From Phyllobates terribilis (Eukaryota): a DNA stretch of 64,000 nt. Within the stretch, counting starts at the first letter, position 1; each line of letters opens with the position of its first letter. The notes under the pieces are model-generated. The model was not told the DNA's origin. It saw nothing but the letters and a program-made list of their open reading frames with translations, and ran no database searches. The stretch covers positions 368,962,001 to 369,026,000 of the forward strand of contig NW_027362769.1 of assembly GCF_046119375.1 (NCBI RefSeq), read 5' to 3'. The position numbers and the translations under genes are program-made. Below are positions 1 to 62,989 of the stretch, piece after piece.

Positions 1-1333
1 TGTACTTAAGATGCTACCCCTCACAGTTTGGCGGTGCTTTTTATCTCATTATGTTTTTATGTATTGTACTAATAAAAATGTTTGTTTGCTGTAAAATCTG
101 GTCTCTGACACTTCAATCAGACTAGGACCAGGTGTATTGATGGTACACAGTGTATAATGTTTAGTGGGGCACCACAAAGCTGCTCTGTCCTATAGGTTTT
201 GGCCTCCGTAAGGTAAATGGAGTCCTATAGAGATGTTTGAAGGGCGGTTGTCCAATCTTCTGTGTTTAGGAGCGCATCCCTATCCAGCCGTCTGACTTCC
301 TGGGGTTGCAAGGGGGCTGCTCCCACAGTTTGGACCAGCAGGCTAACAACGAGGCCATGCTGAAATGTGCAATTCTCCTGCTTGCTCTGCTATATAGCTG
401 ATCCAGTGTCATTGTTTGCAAAGTGTAGCATTAGGATTAACTGCAATGTTTTTGCTATATTATTGCCCTGGTGGCTCGGAGTTCATTAGTTATCAGGGCT
501 TATTAGTTTAGCTTTTGAGAAAACATAGCAATTGTGACTTCAGAAGATGCGGAGGGGGTAGATCTGTATCTGCTAGTACATGGGTCTTCCATGATGATCC
601 TTTTATCATGAGATTAGTGAAATAATTGCATCCGATTCTCAAGTATTGCTGTCTCATGCCGCAACCTCTAGGACACACCATGGGGGCGATTCATTAAGAC
701 TGGCGTGCATTACGCTGGAGTACACTGAATTAATTTATTGATCGGCGTTCGCTTTAGTGGCGTAACTTATGATGAATTTGACGAGCGGGCATAATCATAC
801 CCTGTCTCATCCACTCCCTGGACAAAATCTTTTCCCTTCATATGGGCGTAGCTGGCAGAGACTGGTGTGTAAATGCCAAAAGCTGCAAAAATATTGTGAT
901 TTATTACGGTTTTCATGTCATATTTCCAGCCTAATTAAGGACCTTAATGAATCACCCCCATGAGTCTGAGAATGAAGATGTAGATCGGTCAACTTCTAAA
1001 GGCCGATTGTCTGATGGGAAAGAGACGGGATGATCACAGGGAAATGGGGTGACTGTAGGATAAATGCCCTATCTTTTTGTTCTCAAGGGCGGTAAGCTGC
1101 TGCCAGAGCTGTCTGGCGTCGTCTTTCTCTCCTTTCCCTATTGAAAATGCATGAACGCTCAGCCAGTCTGCACATACATGTGTATGGGGGAGTTGAGATA
1201 GATGGCTAGCAGTTGGACGAGCCTTTGGCTGACCTTTTATATCATGTGTATGAACTCCTGGCCAGGCGATTCTGCAAGGCACAGCAGCCACCCACTCTCT
1301 GCTATGTTATATCTTCTGTTTCACACTTCACAG

Positions 1334-4300
1334 ATGCCCACAGTCATCGACTACAAGGACGTCCTATCTCACATCATCTCACTAGACAGAGGCACCCTGC
1401 ACCTTTGCAGCTACATTTCTGAGCTGTCCCTGCTGTACACAGAGCTGTCAGTGTATTCCCCAGCTCAGCTAGCTGCTGGCGCTCTACTACTAGCCAGGAT
1501 CCTGCACAGACAAGGTGGGTCCGCTGGTGTGTGTGTATACAGTACAGACCAAAAGTTTGGACACACCTTCTCATTTAAAGATTTTTCTGTATTTTCCTGA
1601 CTATGAAAATTGTACATTCACACTGAAGGCATCAAAACTATGAATTAACACATGTGGAATTATATACTTAACAAAAAAGTGTGAAACAACTGAAAATATG
1701 TCTTATATTCTAGGTTCTTCAAAGTAGCCACCTTTTGCTTTGATGACTGCTTTGCACACTCTTGGCATTCTCTTGATGAGCTTCAAGAGGTAGTCACAGG
1801 AAATGGTTTTCACTTCACAGGTGTGCCCTGTCAGGTTTAATAAGTGGGATTTCTTGCCTTATAAATGGGGTTGGGACCATCAGTTGTGTTGTGCAGAAGT
1901 CTGGTGGATACACAGCTGATAGTCCTACTGAATAGACTGTTATAATTTGTATTATGGAAAGAAAAAAGCAGCTAAGTAAAGAAAAACGAGTGGCCATCAT
2001 TACTTTAAGAAATGAAGGTCAGTCAGTGCGAAAAATTGGGCAAACTTTGAAAGTGTCCCCAAGTGCAGTTGCAAAAACCATCAAGCGCTACAAAGAAACT
2101 GGCTCACATGAGGACCCCCCCCCCCCCCCCCCCAGGAAAGGAAGACCAAGAGTCACCTCTGCTTCTGAGAATAAGTTTATCTGAGTCACCTGCCTCAGAA
2201 ATCGCAGGTTAACAGCAGCTCAGATTAGAGACCAGGTCAATGCCACACAGAGTTCTAGCAGCAGACACATCTCTACAACAACTGTTAAGAGGAGACTTTG
2301 TGCAGCAGGCCTTCATGGTAAAATAGCTGCTAGGAAACCACTGCTAAGGACAGGCAATAAGCAGAAGAGACTTGTTTGGGCTAAAGAACACAAGGAATGG
2401 ACATTAGACCAGTGGAAATCTGTGCTTTGGTCTGAGGAGTCCAAATTTGAGATCTTTGGTTCCAACCACCGTGTCTTTGTGCGACGCAGAAAAGGTGAAC
2501 GGATGGACTCTACATGCCTGGTTCCCACCGTGAAGCATGGAGGAGGAGGTGTGATGGTGTGGGGGTGCTTTGCTGGTGACACTGTTGGGGATTTATTCAA
2601 AATTGAAGGCATACTGAACCAGCATGGCTACCACAGCATCTTGCAGCGGCATGCTATTCCATCCGGTTTGCGTTTAGTTGGACCATCATTTATTTTTCAA
2701 CAGGACAATGACCCCAAACACACCTCCAGGCTGTGTAAGGGCTATTTGACCAAGAAGGAGAGTGATGGGGTGCTACGCCAGATGACCTGGCCTCCACAGT
2801 CACCAGACCTGAACCCAATCGAGATGGTTTGGGGTGAGCTGGACCGCAGAGTGAAGGCAAAAGGGCCAACAAGTGCTAAGCATCTCTGGGAACTCCTTCA
2901 AGATTGTTGGAAGACCATTTCCGGTGACTACCTCTTGAAGCTCATCAAGAGAATGCCAAGAGTGTGCAAAGCAGTCATCAAAGCAAAAGGTGGCTACTTT
3001 GAAGAACCTAGAATATAAAACATATTTTCAGTTGTTTCACACTTTTTTGTTAAGTATATAATTCCACATGTGTTAATTCAGAGTTTTGATGTCTTCAGTG
3101 TGAATGTACAATTTTCATAGTCATGAAAATACAGAAAAATCTTTAAATGAGAAGGTGTGTCCAAACTCCAANNNNNNNNNNNNNNNNNNNNNNNNNNNNN
3201 NNNNNNNNNNNNNNNNNNNNNNNNNNNNNNNNNNNNNNNNNNNNNNNNNNNNNNNNNNNNNNNNNNNNNNNNNNNNNNNNNNNNNNNNNNNNNNNNNNNN
3301 NNNNNNNNNNNNNNNNNNNNNNNNNNNNNNNNNNATCGGGTATTGTAGAATATGTATGCGGCCAACCGGGCGCAATCAGCAGAGCGGTGTTTAAATTTGG
3401 CGCCAAAATTGCTGATTGGTTGCGGCCGCTGGCCGCGACCAATCAGCGAACCGTATTACTGATGACCGGGCAGCGGCGCCGTCCCTCCCTTCACATTTGC
3501 CGACGAGATATCGGCGGCCCAAGCCGCTGATCTCCTGACGGTAGCCGCATGGAGGTCAGCGGCGCCGCCCGTCGGGGTACTTGTGCTGCCAGCGCCGCTC
3601 ATCTCCCGGCTGCATCGTCGCCGCTGACTTCCGTCCGGCAGATGAGCTGCTAACGGCCGCCATCTTTTTCTGAAATCCTGCGTCGCTGATTGGTCCGGCC
3701 GCGGCCAATCAGCGACGTGGAATTTCCTTGACAGAGAGACAGACGGGATAAGACTATTATATTATATTATATTCCAGAAATGTTAAAAATTCTTCCCAAG
3801 CCTTGGGATTACGAACAACTAGTGATCCAGCTCAACAGTACAATTCACTGGCATAAATTTGCACAAATTTATGGTTTAATTTTTTTTCTTCTCTCCCTTC
3901 GTCCTACATATACTTTTGTCAGGCTGAATCTTGCAATACCAAATTTCACCACAGTAAAGTCCATTTAATTTCCATAGACTATAATGCAATAGCGCCCCTC
4001 TCCTCCTCCCCCAAGTGTAATCTCCAACATATAACTTTGTATTTGTCAGGAATATAGGACACCTTTTAAAACCGGTAAAAAAACATGTATAAAACACATG
4101 ATCAAATTAAAAAAAACAAAAAAAACAATTTATTTACTAAAAACAACCCAACAATATGATATTGGAGCTATAGATTCAGTAATCATCATCCATATGCTTA
4201 TGTACTATTATGTAATACTGCATTATGTCTGTTTCTGATGATGTCGTCTGTATTTTTCTTCCAGCACTTCCGTGGCCCGCGCAGTTGGCAGAGTGCACGG

Positions 4301-12179: not shown

Positions 12180-12340
12180 CATTTTTCACTCCTTCACCTT
12201 CAAAACGGCATGAAATACTGTGACTATCTGAGCGACTGACAAGGGCCAAATTGTAATGGGTAGATGAAAGGTCAGAGCATCTCCAAACAGCAGATATTGT
12301 GGGGTGTTCCCGGTACACGGCAGGTCACGTGGGGTGTTCC

Positions 12341-15300
12341 TGTGGCGCCCCTGAGGGTTCAGTCGCCACAGAGGTACTGCATCTCACCCAGAGGTGTAGT
12401 ATCCCACTCTCAGGTAAGAAGTACTGCCCGGGACCCAAACACCTGCACCCAACACTACACTACCCAACACTGCTGAGCCCTGACCCTGGCTGGAGTAGGG
12501 GGAACCATGTAGTGGGTGTGGGTGAAGGAAGAAGGTCAGGGGAGCACTTGAGAAGGAGGATATAAAAAGGGAAGCCATCTTGGGTGTGAGTGGAGTTCAG
12601 ATCAGTCTCAGAGGGGGATAGTGAAGGGAGCAGGAGCTCTGCTCGGGAGGAGCGGGCCTGAGTGAGAGAGGCCCAGGACATGAGATTGAAGAGAGGAAGG
12701 CTCCAGAAGGAAAGAGTGGATCCTAGGGGTACGGGAAGTGCTGGAGGCCACCCGTATGCCCTAATCTACCAGGAGTGGAAGGATCAAGCCGCAGAGGGGA
12801 CCGGCCCCTAACTAATGAGAATTGCATATTCAACTAGAAACCGGAGGCTTCTGCACTTTCAGGGTGTAGTTGCCACAGCCACAATTAATCGCCAAAAAGG
12901 TAGCCGCACAGGATCCAGGGAACTCCAGGTTGCCCGCCAAGATCTTAGGTTACCGGCTTGGGACACTGATTGTGAGGCGCAGGGCAGGAGGGTGAGAGTC
13001 AGCGCAGGAAGACTACTGAGAAAGGCACACAGAACAGGGTCCCGTCAAGTACTTCTGACATACCTGAGGGATTGCTGTACCCCTACCTCGGTGAACGCAG
13101 GACGACGTGGGTGGTGATAATTTGTCTGTTGTAACCAGGAGCAACGTGATAACCGTGAGTAAACCCTGAAGACTGCACCCCACTGTCTCTGTGAGTTATT
13201 GCTGCGCCATCATCCCCTGCACCACATTGCACCACAACATCTACCTCATCTATAATCACCACAGCAACGCCCTGGAGCAAAGCTCTACGTGTGGAGAGCT
13301 GAACCAACTCTGCTGCATCACCAACAGCTCCAGAGGACCTGCTCCGCAGCGGCGGCTCCATATAGCCACATACCGAAGGTGGCGTCACGAACATTAAACA
13401 TGAAAACTATAATCCTTTTATTGACTGCCCTGGGTCACGGACCGGGTCACCGCCACTGTGACATCTCCCCTAGCAACGACCGGCCCGGCTACCGAGTACC
13501 CCACTGCCCAGGGGGTGCGTCAAACCTCATGGGTTTTCCCCGGGAGACCCGTGAGGAGACTGCACGCCGAGAGGAGCATTGCCGGCAGGAGCTCCTGCAG
13601 CTAGAAAAGGAGCTGCGCATCAGGCGGGTGCGCTGGGAGAGAATGGAGGCCAGTAACATGGAGGAGAAGGCCCGGGCCCGCAAGGCAAAGCCGGCCACGC
13701 CCGAGCCATGTCCCGAAGGAGTGGTGGTCAAGTTCGACTTAGATGGAGGATGGGGGTTCATCCGCGAGTTACAGCTTGGCACCGACCTTTTTGTCAGCCA
13801 GCGGGACGTGGAGTCCCATCTCCAACAGGGACATCCAGAGCGGGATCTGTACCCCGATGACCGGGTCACCTGTACCCGCCATAGAGGAGAGCGGGGCTGG
13901 TATGCGCTGACTGTATACAGAGTAGTGGAGGAGGACATGCCCCCAGCAGGTTGAGGCTGATGACCCGGCTGGGCCAGCCTACAGCAAACAGGTGTCTCCC
14001 AGGAGGGTGCACAACTATTGAGTAAGTCGTGTGAAGAGACTGTAAATAGTTACCCGGAAGGGTACATCATTGTTGAGTGAACTGAAAAAGTTTGTGTGTG
14101 TTTACCTAGTTACCCGGTAAGGGTATAAGAACTGACAGGCTGAGGACTGTGAGCAGCCAAAAACTTTTAAACTGTATATAGTTTGCACTTATTAAAGTGC
14201 CTCTTATTGGTTTTAGATTAAAAAAGACCACTGAACAAAAACCTGTTTGGCGTGGCCGAAGACGTGGTCCAACAGCTGGATCACCTATGCCCTGCAGCCA
14301 CGCCCAGGGCCTACGTTGAGGGTTTTCGGACGGGTCCCTCATGTTCATCAGATTGCACCTTGTTCAGTGAAATGGACACCCCGCTATAGATTTCACTGTA
14401 GTCTATTGAAAATGTTTTATGTGTGAGGAAAAATGTTATTTAAAAAGAAGTTCTATATAGTAACCTGTAACGTTTAAGAAATGTGCCTCCCATAAAGGGA
14501 AGAAAAAGTTTTGAATATTCTTCTATGTGAATGCATTCTAAAAATTTGCATGTCTTTAAAATACGTTGTGTTTTTACTTTGTTCCAGCCTGCGGACGTGC
14601 TGTGTTTTACCAGGGAGGTATGTGGCGCCCCTGAGGGTTCAGTCGCCACAGAGGTACTGCATCTCACCCAGAGGTGTAGTATCCCACTTTCAGGTAAAGA
14701 TGGAGTACTGCCCAGGACCCAAACACCTGCACCCAACACTACACTACTCCAGACCGGCAGGAGGGGCAAGATGCACTGCTGCGCTGCTGAGCCCTGACCC
14801 TGGCTGGAGTGGGGGGAACCAAGAGAGGGGGAACCATGTAGTGGGTGTGGGTGGAGGAAGAAGGTCAGGGGAGCTCTTGAGAAGGAGGATATAAAAAGGG
14901 AAGCCATCTTGGGTGTGTGTGGAGTGGAGTTCAGATCAGTCTCCAAAGGAGGACAGTGAAGGGAGCAGGAGCTCTGCTCGAGAGGAGCGGGCCTGGGTGA
15001 GAGAGGCCCAGGAGGTGAGACTGACTGAAGAGAGGAGAGGAGCAGGAAGGAAGGCTCCAAGAAAGAAAGAGTGGATCCTAGGGGTACGGGAAGTGCTGGA
15101 GGCACCAGGAGTGGAAGGATCAAGCCGCAGAGGGGACCGGCCCCTAACTAGTGAGAATTGCATATTCAACTAGAAACCGGAGGCTTCTGCACTTTCAGGG
15201 TGTAGTTGCCACAGCCACAATTAATCGCCAAAAAGGTAGCCGCACAGGATCCAGGGAACTCCAGGTTGCCCGCCAAGATCTTAGGTTACCGGCTTGGGAC

Positions 15301-15875
15301 ACTGATTGTGAGGCGCAGGGCAGGAGGGTGAGAGCCAGCGCAGGAAGACGACTGAGAAAGGCACACAGAACTGGGTCCCATCAAGTACTTCTGACATACC
15401 TGAGGGATTGCTGAACCCCTACCTCGGTGAACGCAGAACGACGTGGGTGGTGATAATTTGGCCGTTGTAACCAGGAGCAATGTGATAACCGTGAGTAAAC
15501 CCTGAAGACTGCACCCCACTGTCTCTGTGAATTATTGCTGTGCCATCATCCCCTGCACCACACTGCACAACAACAATTACTTCACTATTTACCATCACCG
15601 CACCGCCCTGGAGCTTAGCTTTACCTGTGGAGAGCTGAACCAACTCTGCTGCATTACCAACAGCTCCAGAGGACCTGCTCCGCAGCGGTGGCTCCATATA
15701 GCCGCATACCACAGGTGGCGTCATGAACATTAAACATAAAAACTATAATCCTTTTCTTTAAAACCCCCCTTTATTGACTGCCCTGGGTAACGGACCAGGT
15801 CACCGCAACTGTGACATCTCCCCTAGCAACGACCGGCCTGTCTACCGAGTACCCCACGGCCCAGGGAGCACGTCA
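12341..15875 (+). mobile_element. Non-autonomous LTR retroelement (Gypsy-like): 5' LTR 12341-13522, internal region 13523-14620, 3' LTR 14621-15875
   Basis: Two about 1.2-kb direct repeats starting TGTGGCGCCCC and ending CGTCA; 4-bp TSD TTCC (12337-12340, 15876-15879); TATAAAA at 12561 and 14890; AGTAAA at 13158; short purine tract AGGGAGG just before the 3' LTR. No gag, RT or integrase coding seen. Confidence 0.9.
13529..13954 (+). CDS. Retroelement-borne 141-aa protein: N-terminal charged coiled coil plus C-terminal cold-shock domain (about 13718-13924)
   Basis: Open frame starting 7 nt after the 5' LTR. GVVVKFD..GGWGFIR..DLFVSQRDV..LYPDDRVT..GERGWYALTV aligns by eye with YBX1/Lin28/CspA CSDs (RNP1 GYGFI-like, RNP2 DVFVH-like). 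The domain call is strong; expression is unknown. Confidence 0.7.
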   Translation: MGFPRETREETARREEHCRQELLQLEKELRIRRVRWERMEASNMEEKARARKAKPATPEPCPEGVVVKFDLDGGWGFIRELQLGTDLFVSQRDVESHLQQGHPERDLYPDDRVTCTRHRGERGWYALTVYRVVEEDMPPAG

Positions 15876-16771
15876 TTCCCGGCATACAGCAGGTCTTGTG
15901 GGGTGTTCCCGGTATAGGGCAGGTCTTGTGGGGTGTTCCCAGCATACGGGAGGTCTTGTGGGGTGTTCCCGGTATATGGCGGGTCTTGTGGGATGTTCCC
16001 GGTATACGCCGTCTCGCGGGGTGTTCCCTGTATACAGCGGGTCTCGCGGGGTGTTCCCTGTATATGGCAGGTCTTGTGGGGTGTTCCCAGCATACGGGAG
16101 GTCTTGTGGGGTGTTCCCGGCATACGGGAGGTCTTGTGGGGTGTTCCCGGCATACGGTAGGTCTCGCGCGGTGTTCCCTGTATACGGCGGGTCTCGCGGG
16201 GTGTTCCCGGTATACGGCGGGTCTCGCGGGGTGTTCCCTGTATACGGCGGGTCTCGCGGGGTGTTCCCGGTATACGGCAGGTCTCGCGGGGTGTTCCCGG
16301 TATACGGCGGGTCTCGCGGGGTGTTCCCGGTATATGGCGGGTCTCGCGAGGTGTTCCCAGTATACGGCGGGTCTCGTGGGGTGTTCCCGGTAAACGGCAG
16401 GTCTCGCGGGGTGTTCCCGGTATACGGCGGGTCTCGTGGGGTGTTCCCGGCATAAGGCGGGTCTCGCGGGGTGTTCTCGGTATACGGCGGGTCTTGCGGG
16501 GTGTTCCCGGTATACGGCGGGTCTCGCGGGGTGTTCCCTGGTATACGGCGGGTCTCGCGGGGTGTTCCCGGCATACGGCGGGTCTCGCGGGGTGTTCCCG
16601 GCATAAGGCGGGTCTCGCGGGGTGTTCTCGGTATACGGCGAGTCTCGCGGGGTGTTCCCGGTATACGGCGGGTCTCGCGGGGTGTTCCCTTGTATACGGC
16701 GGGTCTCGCGGGGTGTTCCCGGCATACGGCGGGTCTCGCGGGGTGTTCCCGGCATACGGCGGGTCTTGTGG
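15876..16771. repeat. 30-bp GC-rich minisatellite (unit about GGGGTGTTCCCGGTATACGGCGGGTCTCGC), about 30 copies; 1.5 further copies at 12298-12340
   Basis: Direct tandem periodicity; source of the many repetitive ORFs in the track. Confidence 0.97.
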
Positions 16772-17218
16772 AGAGTTCTGAATATACAACATTTCTTGGG
16801 GTGTCTACGACTTTTTAAAAAGTTGCAATTGATGAATCAGCTAAAAACATCTGGAGAACAAACCATGCTGACAGCGATCAACATTAAAATAAATAAATTA
16901 ATAAAAAAAAGACGAACGCATAGAAAAAACAGGCGCAAACAGGTCCAAAGGCGCAAAGTAAAAGAATTTAGAGCGAATGAAAAAATGGGTATAAACCACT
17001 AAAAAATCGACAAACGGTGCAAATGCTTTAGTGAACAGGGTCAAGAATGACCAAAAAATGTAAATTTTGCAATTTCGATTTTTTTTTTTTTTTTTTTTTT
17101 CATTTCATTGTTCACCGTATGGAATATTAACCTTTTATTAGCTTTGACAGTTTGGGATGTAGCGAGACCAAGTATGTTATTTATTTGTCTCCCAGCCATG
17201 GACACAATGAAGCTACAG

Positions 17219-53354: not shown

Positions 53355-53533
53355 GAATGGATTATATATAAGATAGATAATAGATAGATAATAGATAAAT
53401 TGATGGATAGATTATAGATAATATAGATAGATGATAGATAGATAATAGATAAATTGATGGATAGATTATAGATAATATAGATAGATGATAGATAAATAAT
53501 AGATAAATTGATGGATAGATTATAGATAATATA
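53291..53533. repeat. Complex (GATA)n/(TAGA)n microsatellite, continuing 55165-55470 beyond the transposon
   Basis: GATA-based low-complexity sequence with higher-order repeats on both sides of the Tc1 insertion. Confidence 0.95.
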
Positions 53534-55164
53534 CAGTACAGACCAAAAATTTGGACACACCTTCTCATTTAAAGATTTTTCTGTATTTTCATGACTATGA
53601 AAATTGTACATTCACACTGAAGGCATCAAAACTATGAATTAACATATGTGGAATTATATACTTAACAAAAAAGTGTGAAACAACTGATAACATGTCTTAT
53701 ATTCTAGGTTCTTCAAAGTAGCCACCTTTTGCTTTGATGACTGCTTTGCACACTCTTGGCATTCTCTTGATGAGCTTAAAGAGGTAGTCACCGGAAATGG
53801 TTTTCACTTCACAGGTGTGCCCTGTCAGGTTTAATAAGGGGGATTTCTGGCCTTAAAAATGGGGTTGGGACCATCAGTTGTGTTGTGCAGAAGTCAGGTG
53901 GATACACAGCTGATAGTCCTACTGAATAGACTGTTAGAAATTGTATTATGGCAAGAAAAAAGCAGCTAAGTAAAGAAAAACGAGTGGCCACCATTACTTT
54001 AAGAAATGAAGGTCAGTCAGTCCGAAAAATTGGGCAAACTTTGAAAGTGTCCCCAAGTGCAGTTGCAAAAACCATCAAGCGCTACAAAGAAACTGGCTCA
54101 CATGAGGACCGCCCCAGGAAAGGAAGACCAAGAGTCACCTCTGCTTCTGAGGATAAGTTTATCCGAGTCACCAGCCTCAGAAATCGCAGGTTAACAGCAG
54201 CTCAGATTAGAGACCAGGTCAATGCCACACAGAGTTCTAGCAGCAGACACATCTCTACAACAACTGTTAAGAGGAGACTTTGTGCAGAAGGCCTTCATGG
54301 TAAAATAGCTGCTAGGAAACCACTGCTAAGGACAGGCAACAAGCAGAAGAGACTTGTTTGGGCTAAAGAACACAAGGAATGGACATTAGGCCAGTGGAAA
54401 TCTGTGCTTTGGTCTGATGAGTCCAAATTTGAGATCTTTGGTTCCAACCACCGTGTCTTTGTGCGATGCAGAAAAGGTGAACTGATGGACTCTACTTACC
54501 TGGCTTCTACTGTGAAGCATGGAGGAGGAGGTGTGATGGTGTGGGGGTGCTTTGCTGGTGACACTGTTGGGGATTTATTCAAAATTGAAGGCATACTGAA
54601 CCAGCATGGCTACCACAGCATCTAGCAGCGGCATGCTATTCCATCCAGTTTGCGTTTAGTTGGACCATCATTTATTTTTCAACAGGACAATGACCCCAAA
54701 CACACCTCCAGGCTGTGTAAGGGCTATTTGACCAAGAAGGAGAGTGATGGGGTGCTACGCCAGATGACCTGGCCTCCACAGTCACCAGACCTGAACCCAA
54801 TCGAGATGGTTTGGGGTGAGCTGGACCCCAGAGTGAAGGCAAAAGGGCCAACAAGTGCTAAGCATCTCTGGGAACTCCTTCAAGATTGTTGGAAGACCAT
54901 TTCCGGTGACTACCTCTTGAAGCTCATCAAGAGAACGCCAAGAGTGTGCAAAGCAGTCATGAAAGCAAAAGGTGGCTACTTTGAAGAACCTAGAATATAA
55001 GACATATTTTCAGTTGTTTCACACTTTTTTTGTTAAGTATATAATTCCACATGTGTTAATTCATAGTTTTGATGCCTTCAGTGTGAATGTACAATTTTTA
55101 TAGTTATGAAAATACAGAAAAATCTTTAAATGAGAAGGTGTGTCCAAACTTTTGGTCTGTACTG
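53534..55164 (+). mobile_element. Tc1/mariner DNA transposon, DD38E type, full length (1631 bp), copy 2
   Basis: TA TSD (53532-53533, 55165-55166); TIRs 53534-53801 and 54896-55164; transposase 53948-55000 (350 codons) interrupted by one TTG>TAG stop at 54623-54625; WSDES, QQDND and PIEMVW triad intact. Confidence 0.97.
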
Positions 55165-55614
55165 TAGATAGATGATAGATAAATAATAGATAAATTGATG
55201 GATAGATTATAGATAATATAGATAGATAGATAGATAGATAGATACAGGATAGATAAATTGATGGATAGATTATAGATAGATACAGGATAGATAGATGATA
55301 GATAATAGTTAAATTGATGGATAGATTATAGATAATATAGATAGATGATAGATAGATACAGGATAGATAAATTGATGGATAGATTATAGATAGATACAGG
55401 ATAGATAGATAATAGATAGATAAATTGATGGATAGATTATAGATAATATAGATAGATAATATAGATAGATTTTTGCTATAGATATTGGGTGGATTTGGAT
55501 CTATAGATCTCTAGATAAATAATGAAGGTGATATTGGATATTGATGATGGACACAATTGTATCAATGTGCACAGGGAACCTCAGTAATGGAATTCAGTGT
55601 TTTTTGTGTCTTTG

Positions 55615-56646
55615 TGACGCGCCCCCTGGGCCTGTGCTGCTTCTGCTGCGCAGGGGGATACCCGGAGCCGGATCTGCTGGGGGTAGTAGTCCTCGTGGCG
55701 GTGACCCGGTCCGTGCCCAGGGTCAAACTAAGCGGCGGAGTTTAGTATAAGATGTTATAGTGTTCGACTACGCCACCCGTTGAATGCGGTTATGAAACCG
55801 CCGCTGCAGGGCAGACCGCTGAGGCCGGTGGTACGGTTGTGCAGCGTGGATAGTATAACCCCCAACGGGAGGGGTATGGCCTCAGGGCAGCGGACGTGGA
55901 TGATGGGGATAGTGGAATTGCTCGCAGGCAGCAGGAACCACTCAGAGACGGTGCGGTGTAGTTCAGGGTCTTTACTGGTGGCAAAGGTAGACCCTCCCGG
56001 GAGTACTGGCTAGCGATCGGGGCCTGGTCAGTCCGTGAGCAGATAGGATCTCCCCTGGCCAGGCGGAGTTGTAGGCCTCCCCACTAATTGTACTCTTCCT
56101 GGCTACCTTGCTAGAAGCGGGTAAAAGTAGCCCACGTCCCTGAGTGTACCGTGTGGTGCTCACCCGTATGGCCGGTGACTCGGGGCCTTCTGGTAGCCTC
56201 CGCTCCACGACAGCGGTGCTGGTCCCACGCGTGTGACCGTGCCTTCGGGTTTCTTGGCCAGAGGACCTGAAATCCCCTGCCAGTCGGTTTCTGCTGCTGG
56301 GTATGGCTCAGTCCCCACAGCCTCGGACTCCGTGTCCGGTGAGATCTCTTCAGCCAGGACGAGCTCTACAGCTTCCAGTCTCTGACCCCTTTTATCACTG
56401 CTCCCACAGAGCTCCTGATCTTGCTCTCCCTGTATCAGCTCCACTCCAGACCAGACTGTGTCTCTGTCTGGGACTCCTCTTCTTCTTAACCCCGCCTCAG
56501 CCCCAGTTTATATAGGGGAAGTTCTTCCCCTCCCAGGACTGGGCAGGAGATGTTGCATGCTTAGGATTCCTGACCAGGAGACCTCCCACCTGCTCACAGA
56601 CGTAATATTGCTATTACTGTGGTAACCAGACCCCTGGGGTTCCACA
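55615..56646 (-). mobile_element. Solo LTR (1032 bp) related to the LTRs at 12341-15875
   Basis: 4-bp TSD TTTG (55611-55614, 56647-56650). On the minus strand it starts TGTGGAACCCC and ends GGGGGCGCGTCA, with TATATAAA 56514-56507 and AGTAAA 55976-55971. It shares a 21-nt identical block with 13436-13456. Confidence 0.88.
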
Positions 56647-57669
56647 TTTGTGTCACAGACACTTATTTGCTTTTGGATTTCACACAGCAGCCCGGACCTG
56701 CGCCCAGAATTCATATTGTAACGAGGTGACGGCCTGTTCTGTTTTCTTGACATAAATGACAGATTAATAGATATATGATCGTTAAAATGAGAAAAAAAAA
56801 CAATTATTGTTGGAAATCTCCCATCATCTGTGCCGATCAGGAAACAAACCAGAGACCTCCCCTGGAATGACCTTCCATGAAGGACGTCCTTGGAGAATTG
56901 GATGTGTTGGGAGATTTCCCAACATGCTTTGCTCATTGACAGAATTTGGGAATTCTGGGGGAATTAGTTCTTTTGATCAGCCGAGGAGTTAATTAGTCAG
57001 TACCCATTAAAATATCTTGTTATTTGGCTGTAAGAACCCGAGCACATGGCAGGCGGGTGGCAAGAAAACCGCAAATCTAATGTGGAAAAGTGTTCTTGAA
57101 GCTGTTTTTCCCTCCACGGTGTGTTGCAGCCTTTTGACTTGTCAAGTCACTTCTTTTGTTCTGCAGCAAAGTTATCAAAATCTCTTTGAAATAAAACAGC
57201 TAAAAAATAATTCATAGTATGAATATTCCATTAAATTGAATAGGAAGAATTCAAAAATTGTCTGATGTTTTTTTTTTTCCGGAGGATTTGGGAACAGATC
57301 TAGTTCAAAATCCTCCTCAAAAACAATCTGTGTGACCCGAGCCTTGGTTCTTTCTTTCACAATGATCTTTGTAAACTTTGCAAACTTTTAAAAAGTGGCG
57401 GAAATTCTCTTCATTCAAATTGTAAGGCTTTGTGCACACAGAGGGATTTTTTGAACTGGTCAAAAATGACGATTTTTATGGTGGAAACTGGTTCAGAAAA
57501 TGCTCCTTTGAGAAGTTTTTGCCTTTTCTGAAGTTCTTTTGAGAAGTTTTTCTTTCAGGAGCCACTCGTGATGAGAAGTGACATGCACTTTCTTTATTTC
57601 CAGTAGGCGTTTTTCAACACCTGAAACAGGAGGAAAAAGAAAAGAAAATGTCTCAAAGGACTGAACATA

Positions 57670-58809
57670 CAGATGCATCTCAGTAAATTAGAATATCATC
57701 AAAAAGTTAATTTATTTCAGTTCTTCAATACAAAAAGTGAAACTCCTATATTATATAGCGTCATTACAAACAGAGGGATCTATTTCACGTGTTTATTTCT
57801 GTTAATGTTGATGATTATGGCTTACAGCCAATGGAAACACAAAAGTCATTATCTCAGTAAATTAGAATACTTCATAACAGCTTGAAAAATGTTTTTAAAA
57901 TCTGAAATGTTGGCCTACTGAAATGTCTGTTCAGTAAATGCCCTCAATACTTGGTCGGGCTCCTTCTGCATCAATTACTGCATCAATGTGGCATGGAGGC
58001 GATCAGCCTGTGGCACTGCTGAGGTGTTATGGAAGCCCAGGTTGCTTTGATAACAGCCTTCAGCTCATCTGCATTGTTGGGTCTGGTGTCCCTCATCTTC
58101 CTCTTGACAATACCCCATAGATTCTCTATAATAGATTCTCTATGGGGTTAAGGTCAGGCGAGTTTGCTGCCAATCAAGCACAGTGATACTGTTGTTTTTA
58201 TACCAGGTATTGGTACTTTTGGCAGTGTGGACAGGGGCCAAGTCCTGCTGGAGAATGACATTTCCATCTGCAAAAAGCTTGTCGGCAGAGTGAAGCATGA
58301 AGTGCTCTAAAATGTCCTGGTAGACGGCTGCGCTGACTTTGGTCTTGATAAAACACAGTGGACCTACACCAGCAGATGACATGGCTCCCCAAACCATCAC
58401 TGACTGTAGAGACTTCACACTAGACCTCAAGCAGCTTGGATTGTGGCCTCTCCACTCCTCCTCCAGACTCTGGGACCTTGTGGCGTGTCAGTGACTGCCT
58501 TCTGGACATCTGTCAAATCAGCAGTCTTTCCCATGATTGTGGAGCCTACCGAAACAGCCTAAGGGTCCTTTTTAAACACTTAGGAAGCCTTTGCAGGTGT
58601 TTTTTTGTTAATTATTTTAATTCACTGAGTTAATGACTTTTGTGTTTTCATTGGCTGTAAGCCATAATCATCATTAACAGAAATAAACACTTGAAATAGA
58701 TCACACTGTTTGTAATGACTCTATATAATATAGGAGTTTCACTTTTTGTATTGAAGAACTGAAATAAATTAACTTTTTGATGATATTCTAATTTAGTGAG
58801 ATGCACCTG
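57670..58809 (-). mobile_element. Internally deleted Tc1 transposon (DD34E, long IR/DR-type TIRs)
   Basis: TA TSD on both sides; about 200-bp TIRs starting CAG(A/G)TGCATCTCA..AAATTAGAATATCATC. Transposase remnant 58534-57944 (MGKTADL.. fused to ..SVMVWG..QQDLAPVH..DW(P)ANSPDLNPIE) has a large N-terminal deletion, a frameshift and a short duplication near 58118-58142. Confidence 0.92.
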
Positions 58810-60060
58810 TATGACCAGCAAAGTGATTTTACAATAGTAATGATCAGGAAGGTTCTAGCAATCATTTGTAAGTGATTTTTTTCTGGTGTTTATTAGAGTG
58901 CACCCACTCAAAAAAAAAAAAGCCTCATAACTCTGTGTGCACATAACAGTTAAGCTATGTTCACACTGCGTTTTTTTCAGGAATTTTTGGAGAACAATTT
59001 CTCCAAGTGTATGCACACAATGAGTCTTTTCTTGAGTTTTTGAAGAAGAAAATGGGCGAAAAAGAATTCTACAACAAAAAAATGTTTGGATTTACACCCA
59101 GTTACAGCTTTAAAAACTCAGCAAAAACACCCAAAGAGTGCACCTACCTCAACTCTCCAATTAAAGGTAGTGTTTATTGAACATCTCGTTTTTTTTTTTT
59201 TTTTTTTGAGTTTCTGCTCCAAAAACTCAGCAAAAAAAAAAAACCAACAAAACACAAAACTTTAGGTTATTTTATTTTTTTTTTGCAGTGGATCTATTCT
59301 TAAAAAAAAAAGCCTCAAAAATCACTTAAAGGATTCCATCGGGCTCTGCTTCACAAAATATTTTTCAAAACTTATTTAAAAAAATAAAAAGTTCAGAAAA
59401 ACTCCTCTCCTGTGCAGCAAAGTGGATTTTCCAGAGAAATTAATTGGAAGAGATTTGAAGAAGTTTTTAAAAGAGGATTTTGTGAAGGATCCACTACAAA
59501 AAAATCCAAAAAATAAAAAACCCTATGTGCACACATACGCTTTCACTTTCCCATATTAGGGTATGTTCACATGTTTTGACTCCAGTCTAATCCACAAGAA
59601 GACCCGCCGACCTTATTGTTCTTCTCACAGCACAGACAATATCGGCGCTGAGGTCACTGGATGCCATTGGCAGCACAAACAGCTTTTCTTTTGCCCCTTT
59701 GGGTTTCCGGTCATCCATGTAATATTTTTCATTGTGCCGTTCCTCTATTATTCCTCCTGGAAATGTATTCTTAAATCGATCACTGGATGTCCTGCAGCTT
59801 TGGGACGTGTCACCGCACACTACACAATGGGTGTTGAAAAGGTTATCCTATATCTCCAGGAGGAGTCGCAGAGGAACAACCAACGTTCTAGAAATATTAT
59901 TCTATAAACAAGCACAATAACCATTCATTTTCATTGCAGATGCTGCTTCTCCCCCTAAAAAAAAAATGACCCACGGGAAAGAAAGCATAAATGGGACTTG
60001 CACCAAAATGTGCACTGTCACTTTAAAAAGCCGTAATTCGTCGTAAAATGAGTGGGGGAT

Positions 60061-62989
<2,929 letters not shown>

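Follow-up and report, generated by a model that had tools for sequence, protein, structure and literature searches.

A tRNA-Ser primer-binding-site-like motif inside the long terminal repeats of two retroelement families in a poison frog

Three long terminal repeats (LTRs) in a 64,000-nucleotide stretch of Phyllobates terribilis DNA (the window) carry, well inside their ends, a motif complementary to the 3' end of tRNA-Ser. Two of them flank a short interior, and the third is a solo LTR of a second family (Table 1). From the start of the motif to the end of the LTR there are 143 nt in the left, 160 nt in the right and 161 nt in the solo copy, so the position that a sequence-only reading of this DNA had reported, 143–161 nt before the LTR end, is confirmed in all three. 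This is a genuine feature, present in two families and absent from the literature that we searched. Our best explanation, with a probability of about 0.45, is a defective LTR retroelement from a lineage in which U5 was lengthened by ~145–160 nt, with a primer-binding site (PBS) downstream of the LTR and an internal site that is still functional. The element is probably Ty3/Gypsy; its interior holds no reverse transcriptase.

Table 1. Features of the paired element and the solo LTR (positions are those of the window).
Feature	Position	Strand	Remarks
TSD TTCC, left	12337–12340	+	inside 30-bp minisatellite
Left LTR	12341–13522	+	1182 nt, TGTGG...CGTCA; probably a chimera
TATA-like box, U3/R region	12561–12566	+	putative function
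AGTAAA, poly(A)-signal-like hexamer	13158–13163	+	block common to solo family; putative function
PBS-like motif, left LTR	13380–13393	+	14/14 complementary to tRNA-Ser(CGA) 3' end
U5 extension, ending CGTCA	13394–13522	+	block ~13429–13457 nearly identical in solo family
5'-truncated cold-shock-domain ORF	13523–13954	+	homology to relatives starts at first codon after LTR
Polypurine tract	14612–14618	+	2 nt 5' of right LTR
Right LTR	14621–15875	+	1255 nt, TGTGG...CGTCA
PBS-like motif, right LTR	15716–15729	+	13/14 to Ser(CGA); CCACA-GG just 5'
TSD TTCC, right	15876–15879	+
TSD TTTG of solo LTR	55611–55614 and 56647–56650
Solo LTR, second family	55615–56646	-	1032 nt, TGTGG...CGTCA
PBS-like motif, solo LTR	55765–55775	-	11 nt complementary to a different tRNA-Ser 3' end

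LTR bounds were taken from pairwise comparison of the left, right and solo copies. The direct terminal repeats with TG...CA ends, the target site duplication (TSD) and the polypurine tract before the 3' LTR are those of an LTR retroelement, and purine-rich variants of the tract are present among the read variants. Both insertions are flanked by a 4-bp TSD (TTCC for the paired element, TTTG for the solo LTR); by a rough estimate, two such duplications would arise by chance with a probability of 1.5e-5. Because these TSDs fix the LTR end at CGTCA, the earlier placement of the end there, and not at the motif, is correct. When we looked for a CA followed by a TSD, matches fell at LTR position 1255 of 1255 in the paired element and at positions 1032 (the end) and 1040 in the solo LTR, with no such end near the internal motif in either. 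Scored as a terminal inverted repeat, the true end ranked 13th of 1123, 7th of 1196 and first of 973 candidate ends, and an end at CCACA in the right LTR scored equal to the true one. DIRS-type elements lack a TSD and have inverted or split repeats; direct LTRs and 4-bp TSDs rule out such a tyrosine-recombinase retroelement here.

The paired element sits in a 30-bp G+C-rich minisatellite (12284–12340 and 15876–16780), about two units from the left end of the array, and the TTCC duplication is in register with the 30-bp repeat. Two hairpins are predicted at the start of the left LTR (12341–12400, +; z -3.58, with 1 of 200 shuffles as good), a fold that the start of the solo LTR does not share (z -0.49). 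The content of the window is vertebrate-like. Elsewhere in it lie two Tc1-like DNA transposons (1536–3167 and 53530–55169) that have transposase ORFs and long terminal inverted repeats and are ~98% similar to each other, and a MITE-like element (57661–58818) whose 155-nt terminal inverted repeats match at 94%. About 3.5 kb from the solo LTR is the first coding exon of a DUF938 gene (60126–60323, +), presumably METTL26.

The tRNA matches were judged by eye against printed human sequences rather than frog tRNAs. On that basis, the proposed serine identity holds as Ser(CGA) for both LTRs of the pair and as another Ser tRNA, over 11 nt, for the solo LTR; the latter would be Ser(AGA/TGA), as had been proposed. 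When reverse-complemented, a human tRF-Ser-CGA-013 primer given in PMC9659620 agrees with the left motif over 14 nt, and the solo motif equals 11 nt of human tRNA-Ser template oligos given in PMC3299991. The one mismatch in the right LTR is a C to T change at a CpG, where a G-U pair is possible. Allowing up to two mismatches, the window has two matches to the motif variants of the pair, both exact and on the + strand; the solo motif has a single match, exact and on the - strand. No tRNA gene was found in the window. Assuming 60 tRNA ends, the chance of matching any of them somewhere in an LTR is roughly 3e-4 for the 14-mer and 0.015 for the 11-mer. From the TATA-like box at 12561 and the AGTAAA at 13158, the motif would lie in U5.

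A functional PBS is expected to be a tRNA complement of ~18 nt located 2–4 nt outside the LTR; the motif is 11–14 nt long and lies inside it. The sequence-only reading had also described a CCACA-GG context before the motif, mirroring the LTR start. This is true of the right LTR, whereas the left reads CCGAA-GG and the solo LTR has no CA there. The CCACA-GG form makes up most of the aligned contig depth in three of four sequencing runs, with position 13376 at only 35% in run X10. We also considered the terminal GCGTCA as the start of an overlapping PBS and rejected it, as the TGG for the tRNA's CCA is missing at all three ends.

Sliding comparison of the solo LTR with the first family showed similarity only at the AGTAAA block and over the last ~200 nt, which take in the motif, ~45 nt on its 5' side and the U5 extension. 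U3 and R are unalignable between the solo family and that of the paired element. Since the extension is present in both while U3 and R no longer align, it predates the split of the two families. Conservation of the motif above its surroundings was not found: the last ~200 nt are conserved as a whole, and one block of the extension is nearly identical. Neither around the motif nor in the U5 extension did we find a conserved RNA fold (z 0.48, -0.48 and -1.25; the structures differ).

The paired-element family is abundant: before 12341, 336 contigs of one DNA run and 367 of another diverge into unlike flanks. Summed contig depth, which is no measure of copy number, was 537,838 (run X1) and 1,488,648 (run X2) over the U5 extension, exceeding the bins just upstream and far exceeding those of the cold-shock-domain (CSD) ORF (13548–13937; 645–3,759). 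None of the 24 loose ends listed, of 1,720, falls at 13377–13380 or at 13522. A bin farther into the interior (14250–14327, +), ~300 nt before the polypurine tract, has summed depths of 319,031 and 791,125, more than 100 times those of the CSD bins, and is possibly a conserved cis-element common to many families.

The interior is 1098 nt long and, where an autonomous element would have gag and pol, has neither; only the CSD ORF remnant is present. The CSD assignment comes from a Pfam match (E 3e-5) that is below the curated cut-off. No reverse transcriptase or integrase was found in the six other long ORFs of the window that were scanned. An exhaustive HMMER search returned 18 proteins at E up to 0.001, five of them close relatives with 245–549 aa and 43–55% identity. 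The BLASTP alignment to the protein P0001 begins at codon 13523–13525, opposite residue 265 of 431, with 264 residues upstream in P0001. Homology to P0002 (382 aa), one of the two best homologues, runs from its residue 153 and starts three codons earlier, in columns that are weak and lie inside the LTR. P0002 is annotated as an uncharacterised poison-frog protein, which points to a frog host, and gene models such as this CSD protein may be retroelement cargo. Two of the 32 contig pieces listed, of 50,518 in total, start at 13524 (runs X1 and X10), leaving 14 and 18 letters unaligned on the LTR side, which are short ends; none of the 32 bridges the junction of left LTR and ORF.

By these alignments, this copy has lost everything from the LTR end to the middle of the ORF, including the normal PBS position. 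It is true, as had been observed, that no PBS follows at 13523. However, 13523 is a breakpoint in mid-ORF, as the homology to P0001 and P0002 indicates, and the absence is therefore uninformative about intact copies. The argument for non-standard priming, which had been built on it, falls away with the left LTR abutting this breakpoint.

How the present structure arose can be judged from the LTR pair. Over 1162 columns, 58 substitutions separate the two LTRs, along with 13 indels; the left copy has five of at least 11 nt, and the right copy has one of 19 nt. The substitutions are unevenly spread (chi-square p 2e-4), only 12 of 45 CpGs have decayed, and the LTRs do not differ over their first 68 nt. 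Uneven substitutions and few decayed CpGs fit two lineages better than decay after insertion, and the pair has a chimeric look. Nested insertion followed by LTR-LTR recombination is the most likely origin: a sister copy would have inserted into the CSD ORF, and the outer 5' LTR would then have recombined with the inner 3' LTR, keeping the outer TSD and leaving two mismatched LTRs with a breakpoint where the left one stops. On this view, 13522 counts as a third site of integration at CGTCA, and each of the three ends is of the 3' type. Aberrant plus-strand transfer, a process from retrovirus work, is the alternative and would have made the structure in one round of replication. Of 21 alleles checked, 8 are common to both LTRs and differ from the listed read variant; these place both LTRs in one subfamily and count against a wide chimera.

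We propose the following route to an extended U5. The LTR of an ancestor would have ended at CCACA, with the PBS two bases on. A second primer site would have arisen ~150 nt downstream and taken over, presumably following CGTCA in intact copies, and a new integrase end, in imperfect inverted repeat with the left one, would have formed there. Minus-strand synthesis from the downstream site would run through the extension and the old PBS into the remainder of U5 and R. With priming after CGTCA, both LTRs would receive the old site through ordinary reverse transcription. Its location downstream of the poly(A)-like signal means that the genomic RNA would have it once, near the 5' end. In the account of reverse transcription given in PMC7472051, the normal PBS lies 2–4 nt past the 5' LTR, and the starting point of minus-strand synthesis sets the end of the 3' LTR; under this standard scheme, the earlier reasoning that priming at the internal motif could not place the extension at the 3' end is right. 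At 11–14 nt, the old site would be a weak primer site. Its retention would reflect continued pairing with tRNA-Ser, or with 3' fragments of this tRNA, in an auxiliary role (recruitment, pausing or regulation).

The Ser tRNA that the motif matches differs between the two families, even though their U3 and R are unalignable. This switch of Ser type, seen in one solo LTR and over 11 nt, argues for tRNA pairing or templated copying, and it hints that the old site may still bind tRNA. Related anuran Gypsy copies appear to combine an internal Ser motif with a full-length Ser PBS immediately 3' of the LTR, and because of them we give a downstream PBS higher odds. In this copy, where the 5' junction is deleted, we infer the working downstream PBS. 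The idea that U5 was extended, that the true PBS was lost here and that the internal site is a relic or an auxiliary one had already been put forward, and it fits all of our tests. What speaks against our explanation is the prevalence of CCACA-GG in three of four runs, as expected of a current or recent LTR/PBS junction; against an auxiliary role stand a motif no better conserved than its neighbours and the lack of a conserved fold in the sequences folded.

A working PBS after CGTCA would also be compatible with an internal motif that is an inert relic, which we consider possible but somewhat unlikely. Such a relic would stay tRNA-like by templated copying in mis-paired strand transfer, or by way of the conserved U5 block. 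That conservation spans both flanks of the motif fits this reading, as do the single mismatch in the right LTR and the composition of the solo motif, 11 nt of one Ser type followed by an AACA common to the other family. However, neutral sequence should have decayed as U3 and R did, and two of the three copies are still perfect, over 14 and 11 nt. Priming might also have moved to a tRNA-independent self-priming site downstream, as in Tf1/sushi elements, leaving the old tRNA site in the LTR. The extension would then be explained by standard chemistry, and the window is compatible with this since the native junction is deleted, but it offers no positive evidence, and matches to two different Ser tRNAs would be left unexplained; we regard self-priming as improbable.

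We think it equally doubtful, and quite unlikely, that the internal motif is the sole primer site, with the PBS and extension reaching the 3' end by a non-standard route such as integrase cleavage, at CGTCA, of cDNA in circles or concatemers. The context of CCACA-GG and PBS in the right LTR, and in most of the depth in three of four runs, does resemble a normal junction, and priming sites do switch tRNA type, according to PMC7472051. All three CGTCA ends may, moreover, be 3'-type. Yet the site is only 11–14 nt long, the solo family has no CA before it, and the supporting argument from 13523 is void. Internal priming would also require an internal double-strand cut by integrase, for which we know of no precedent in linear cDNA. 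All other explanations together seem to us to have only a small chance. Taken jointly, it is unlikely that a high-copy lineage either primes inside its LTR with an undescribed route to the 3' end or has a two-site, LTR-borne tRNA-Ser system. In the two-site version, which shares that joint estimate, the second site would follow the identity of the primer tRNA and would control reverse transcription or soak up 3' tRNA fragments.

Searches beyond the window returned few leads. The U5-extension motif was found at no locus in metagenome and viral contigs, the CSD profile had no relatives among 125 and 48 candidate stretches, and plasmid sequences gave no match. Viral contigs had 76 matches to a 16-nt PBS pattern, which we rejected as chance, with at most 27 aligned nt in common with the LTRs. 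Word-index protein searches found none among 33 candidates, only the query itself, and none among 8000 longer candidates, and the ESM Atlas gave weak CSD leads only, at most 0.80. Among titles and the beginnings of abstracts, a scope that leaves out Repbase and most subscription papers, we found no paper on a PBS inside an LTR and none on a CSD ORF in amphibian Gypsy elements. Repbase entries or supplements may describe these LTRs already.

On our preferred reading, these elements show how an LTR is enlarged through absorption of its former primer site and leader. Should that site follow tRNA identity from family to family, they would be a natural high-copy test of the action of tRNAs or 3' tRNA fragments beyond the priming PBS. 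PBS-guided annotation would place the ends of these LTRs ~150 nt too soon and take solo LTRs for truncated elements. Should intact copies lack a primer site downstream, the textbook account of how LTRs form would need an exception. The internal motif does not yet show a new mode of copying; that claim has lost its only support, and we now rate it as having little likelihood.

The three LTRs resemble those of tRNA-primed LTR retrotransposons and endogenous retroviruses, as described in PMC7472051, in their TG...CA repeats, short TSD, polypurine tract and complement to a tRNA 3' end. In that description, the PBS lies 2–4 nt outside the 5' LTR and occurs once per element. Here, in contrast, a PBS-like site lies 143–161 nt inside every LTR, the solo one included. 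Tf1/sushi elements self-prime without a tRNA site after the LTR and are a precedent for such priming, although, to our knowledge, they are not known to keep a tRNA site in the LTR. Gmr1-like and related lineages are among the Ty3/Gypsy elements of anurans. Ty3/Gypsy elements are abundant in poison frogs, and the main texts of the two studies reporting this make no mention of primer-binding sites (PMC6278860; bioRxiv 10.1101/2023.11.06.565769). Our element is like the anuran ones in its frog host, high copy number and 4-bp TSD, but unlike them this copy has no gag or pol and has a CSD ORF remnant. Ty3 and Ty1 have bipartite primer-binding sites, with a second tRNA-pairing segment that is partly inside the LTR, and they share with these LTRs such a segment away from the priming site. 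However, the segments of Ty3 and Ty1 pair with other arms of the primer tRNA, whereas the extra site here repeats the match to the 3' end and would, unlike theirs, compete for the primer or bind a second tRNA.
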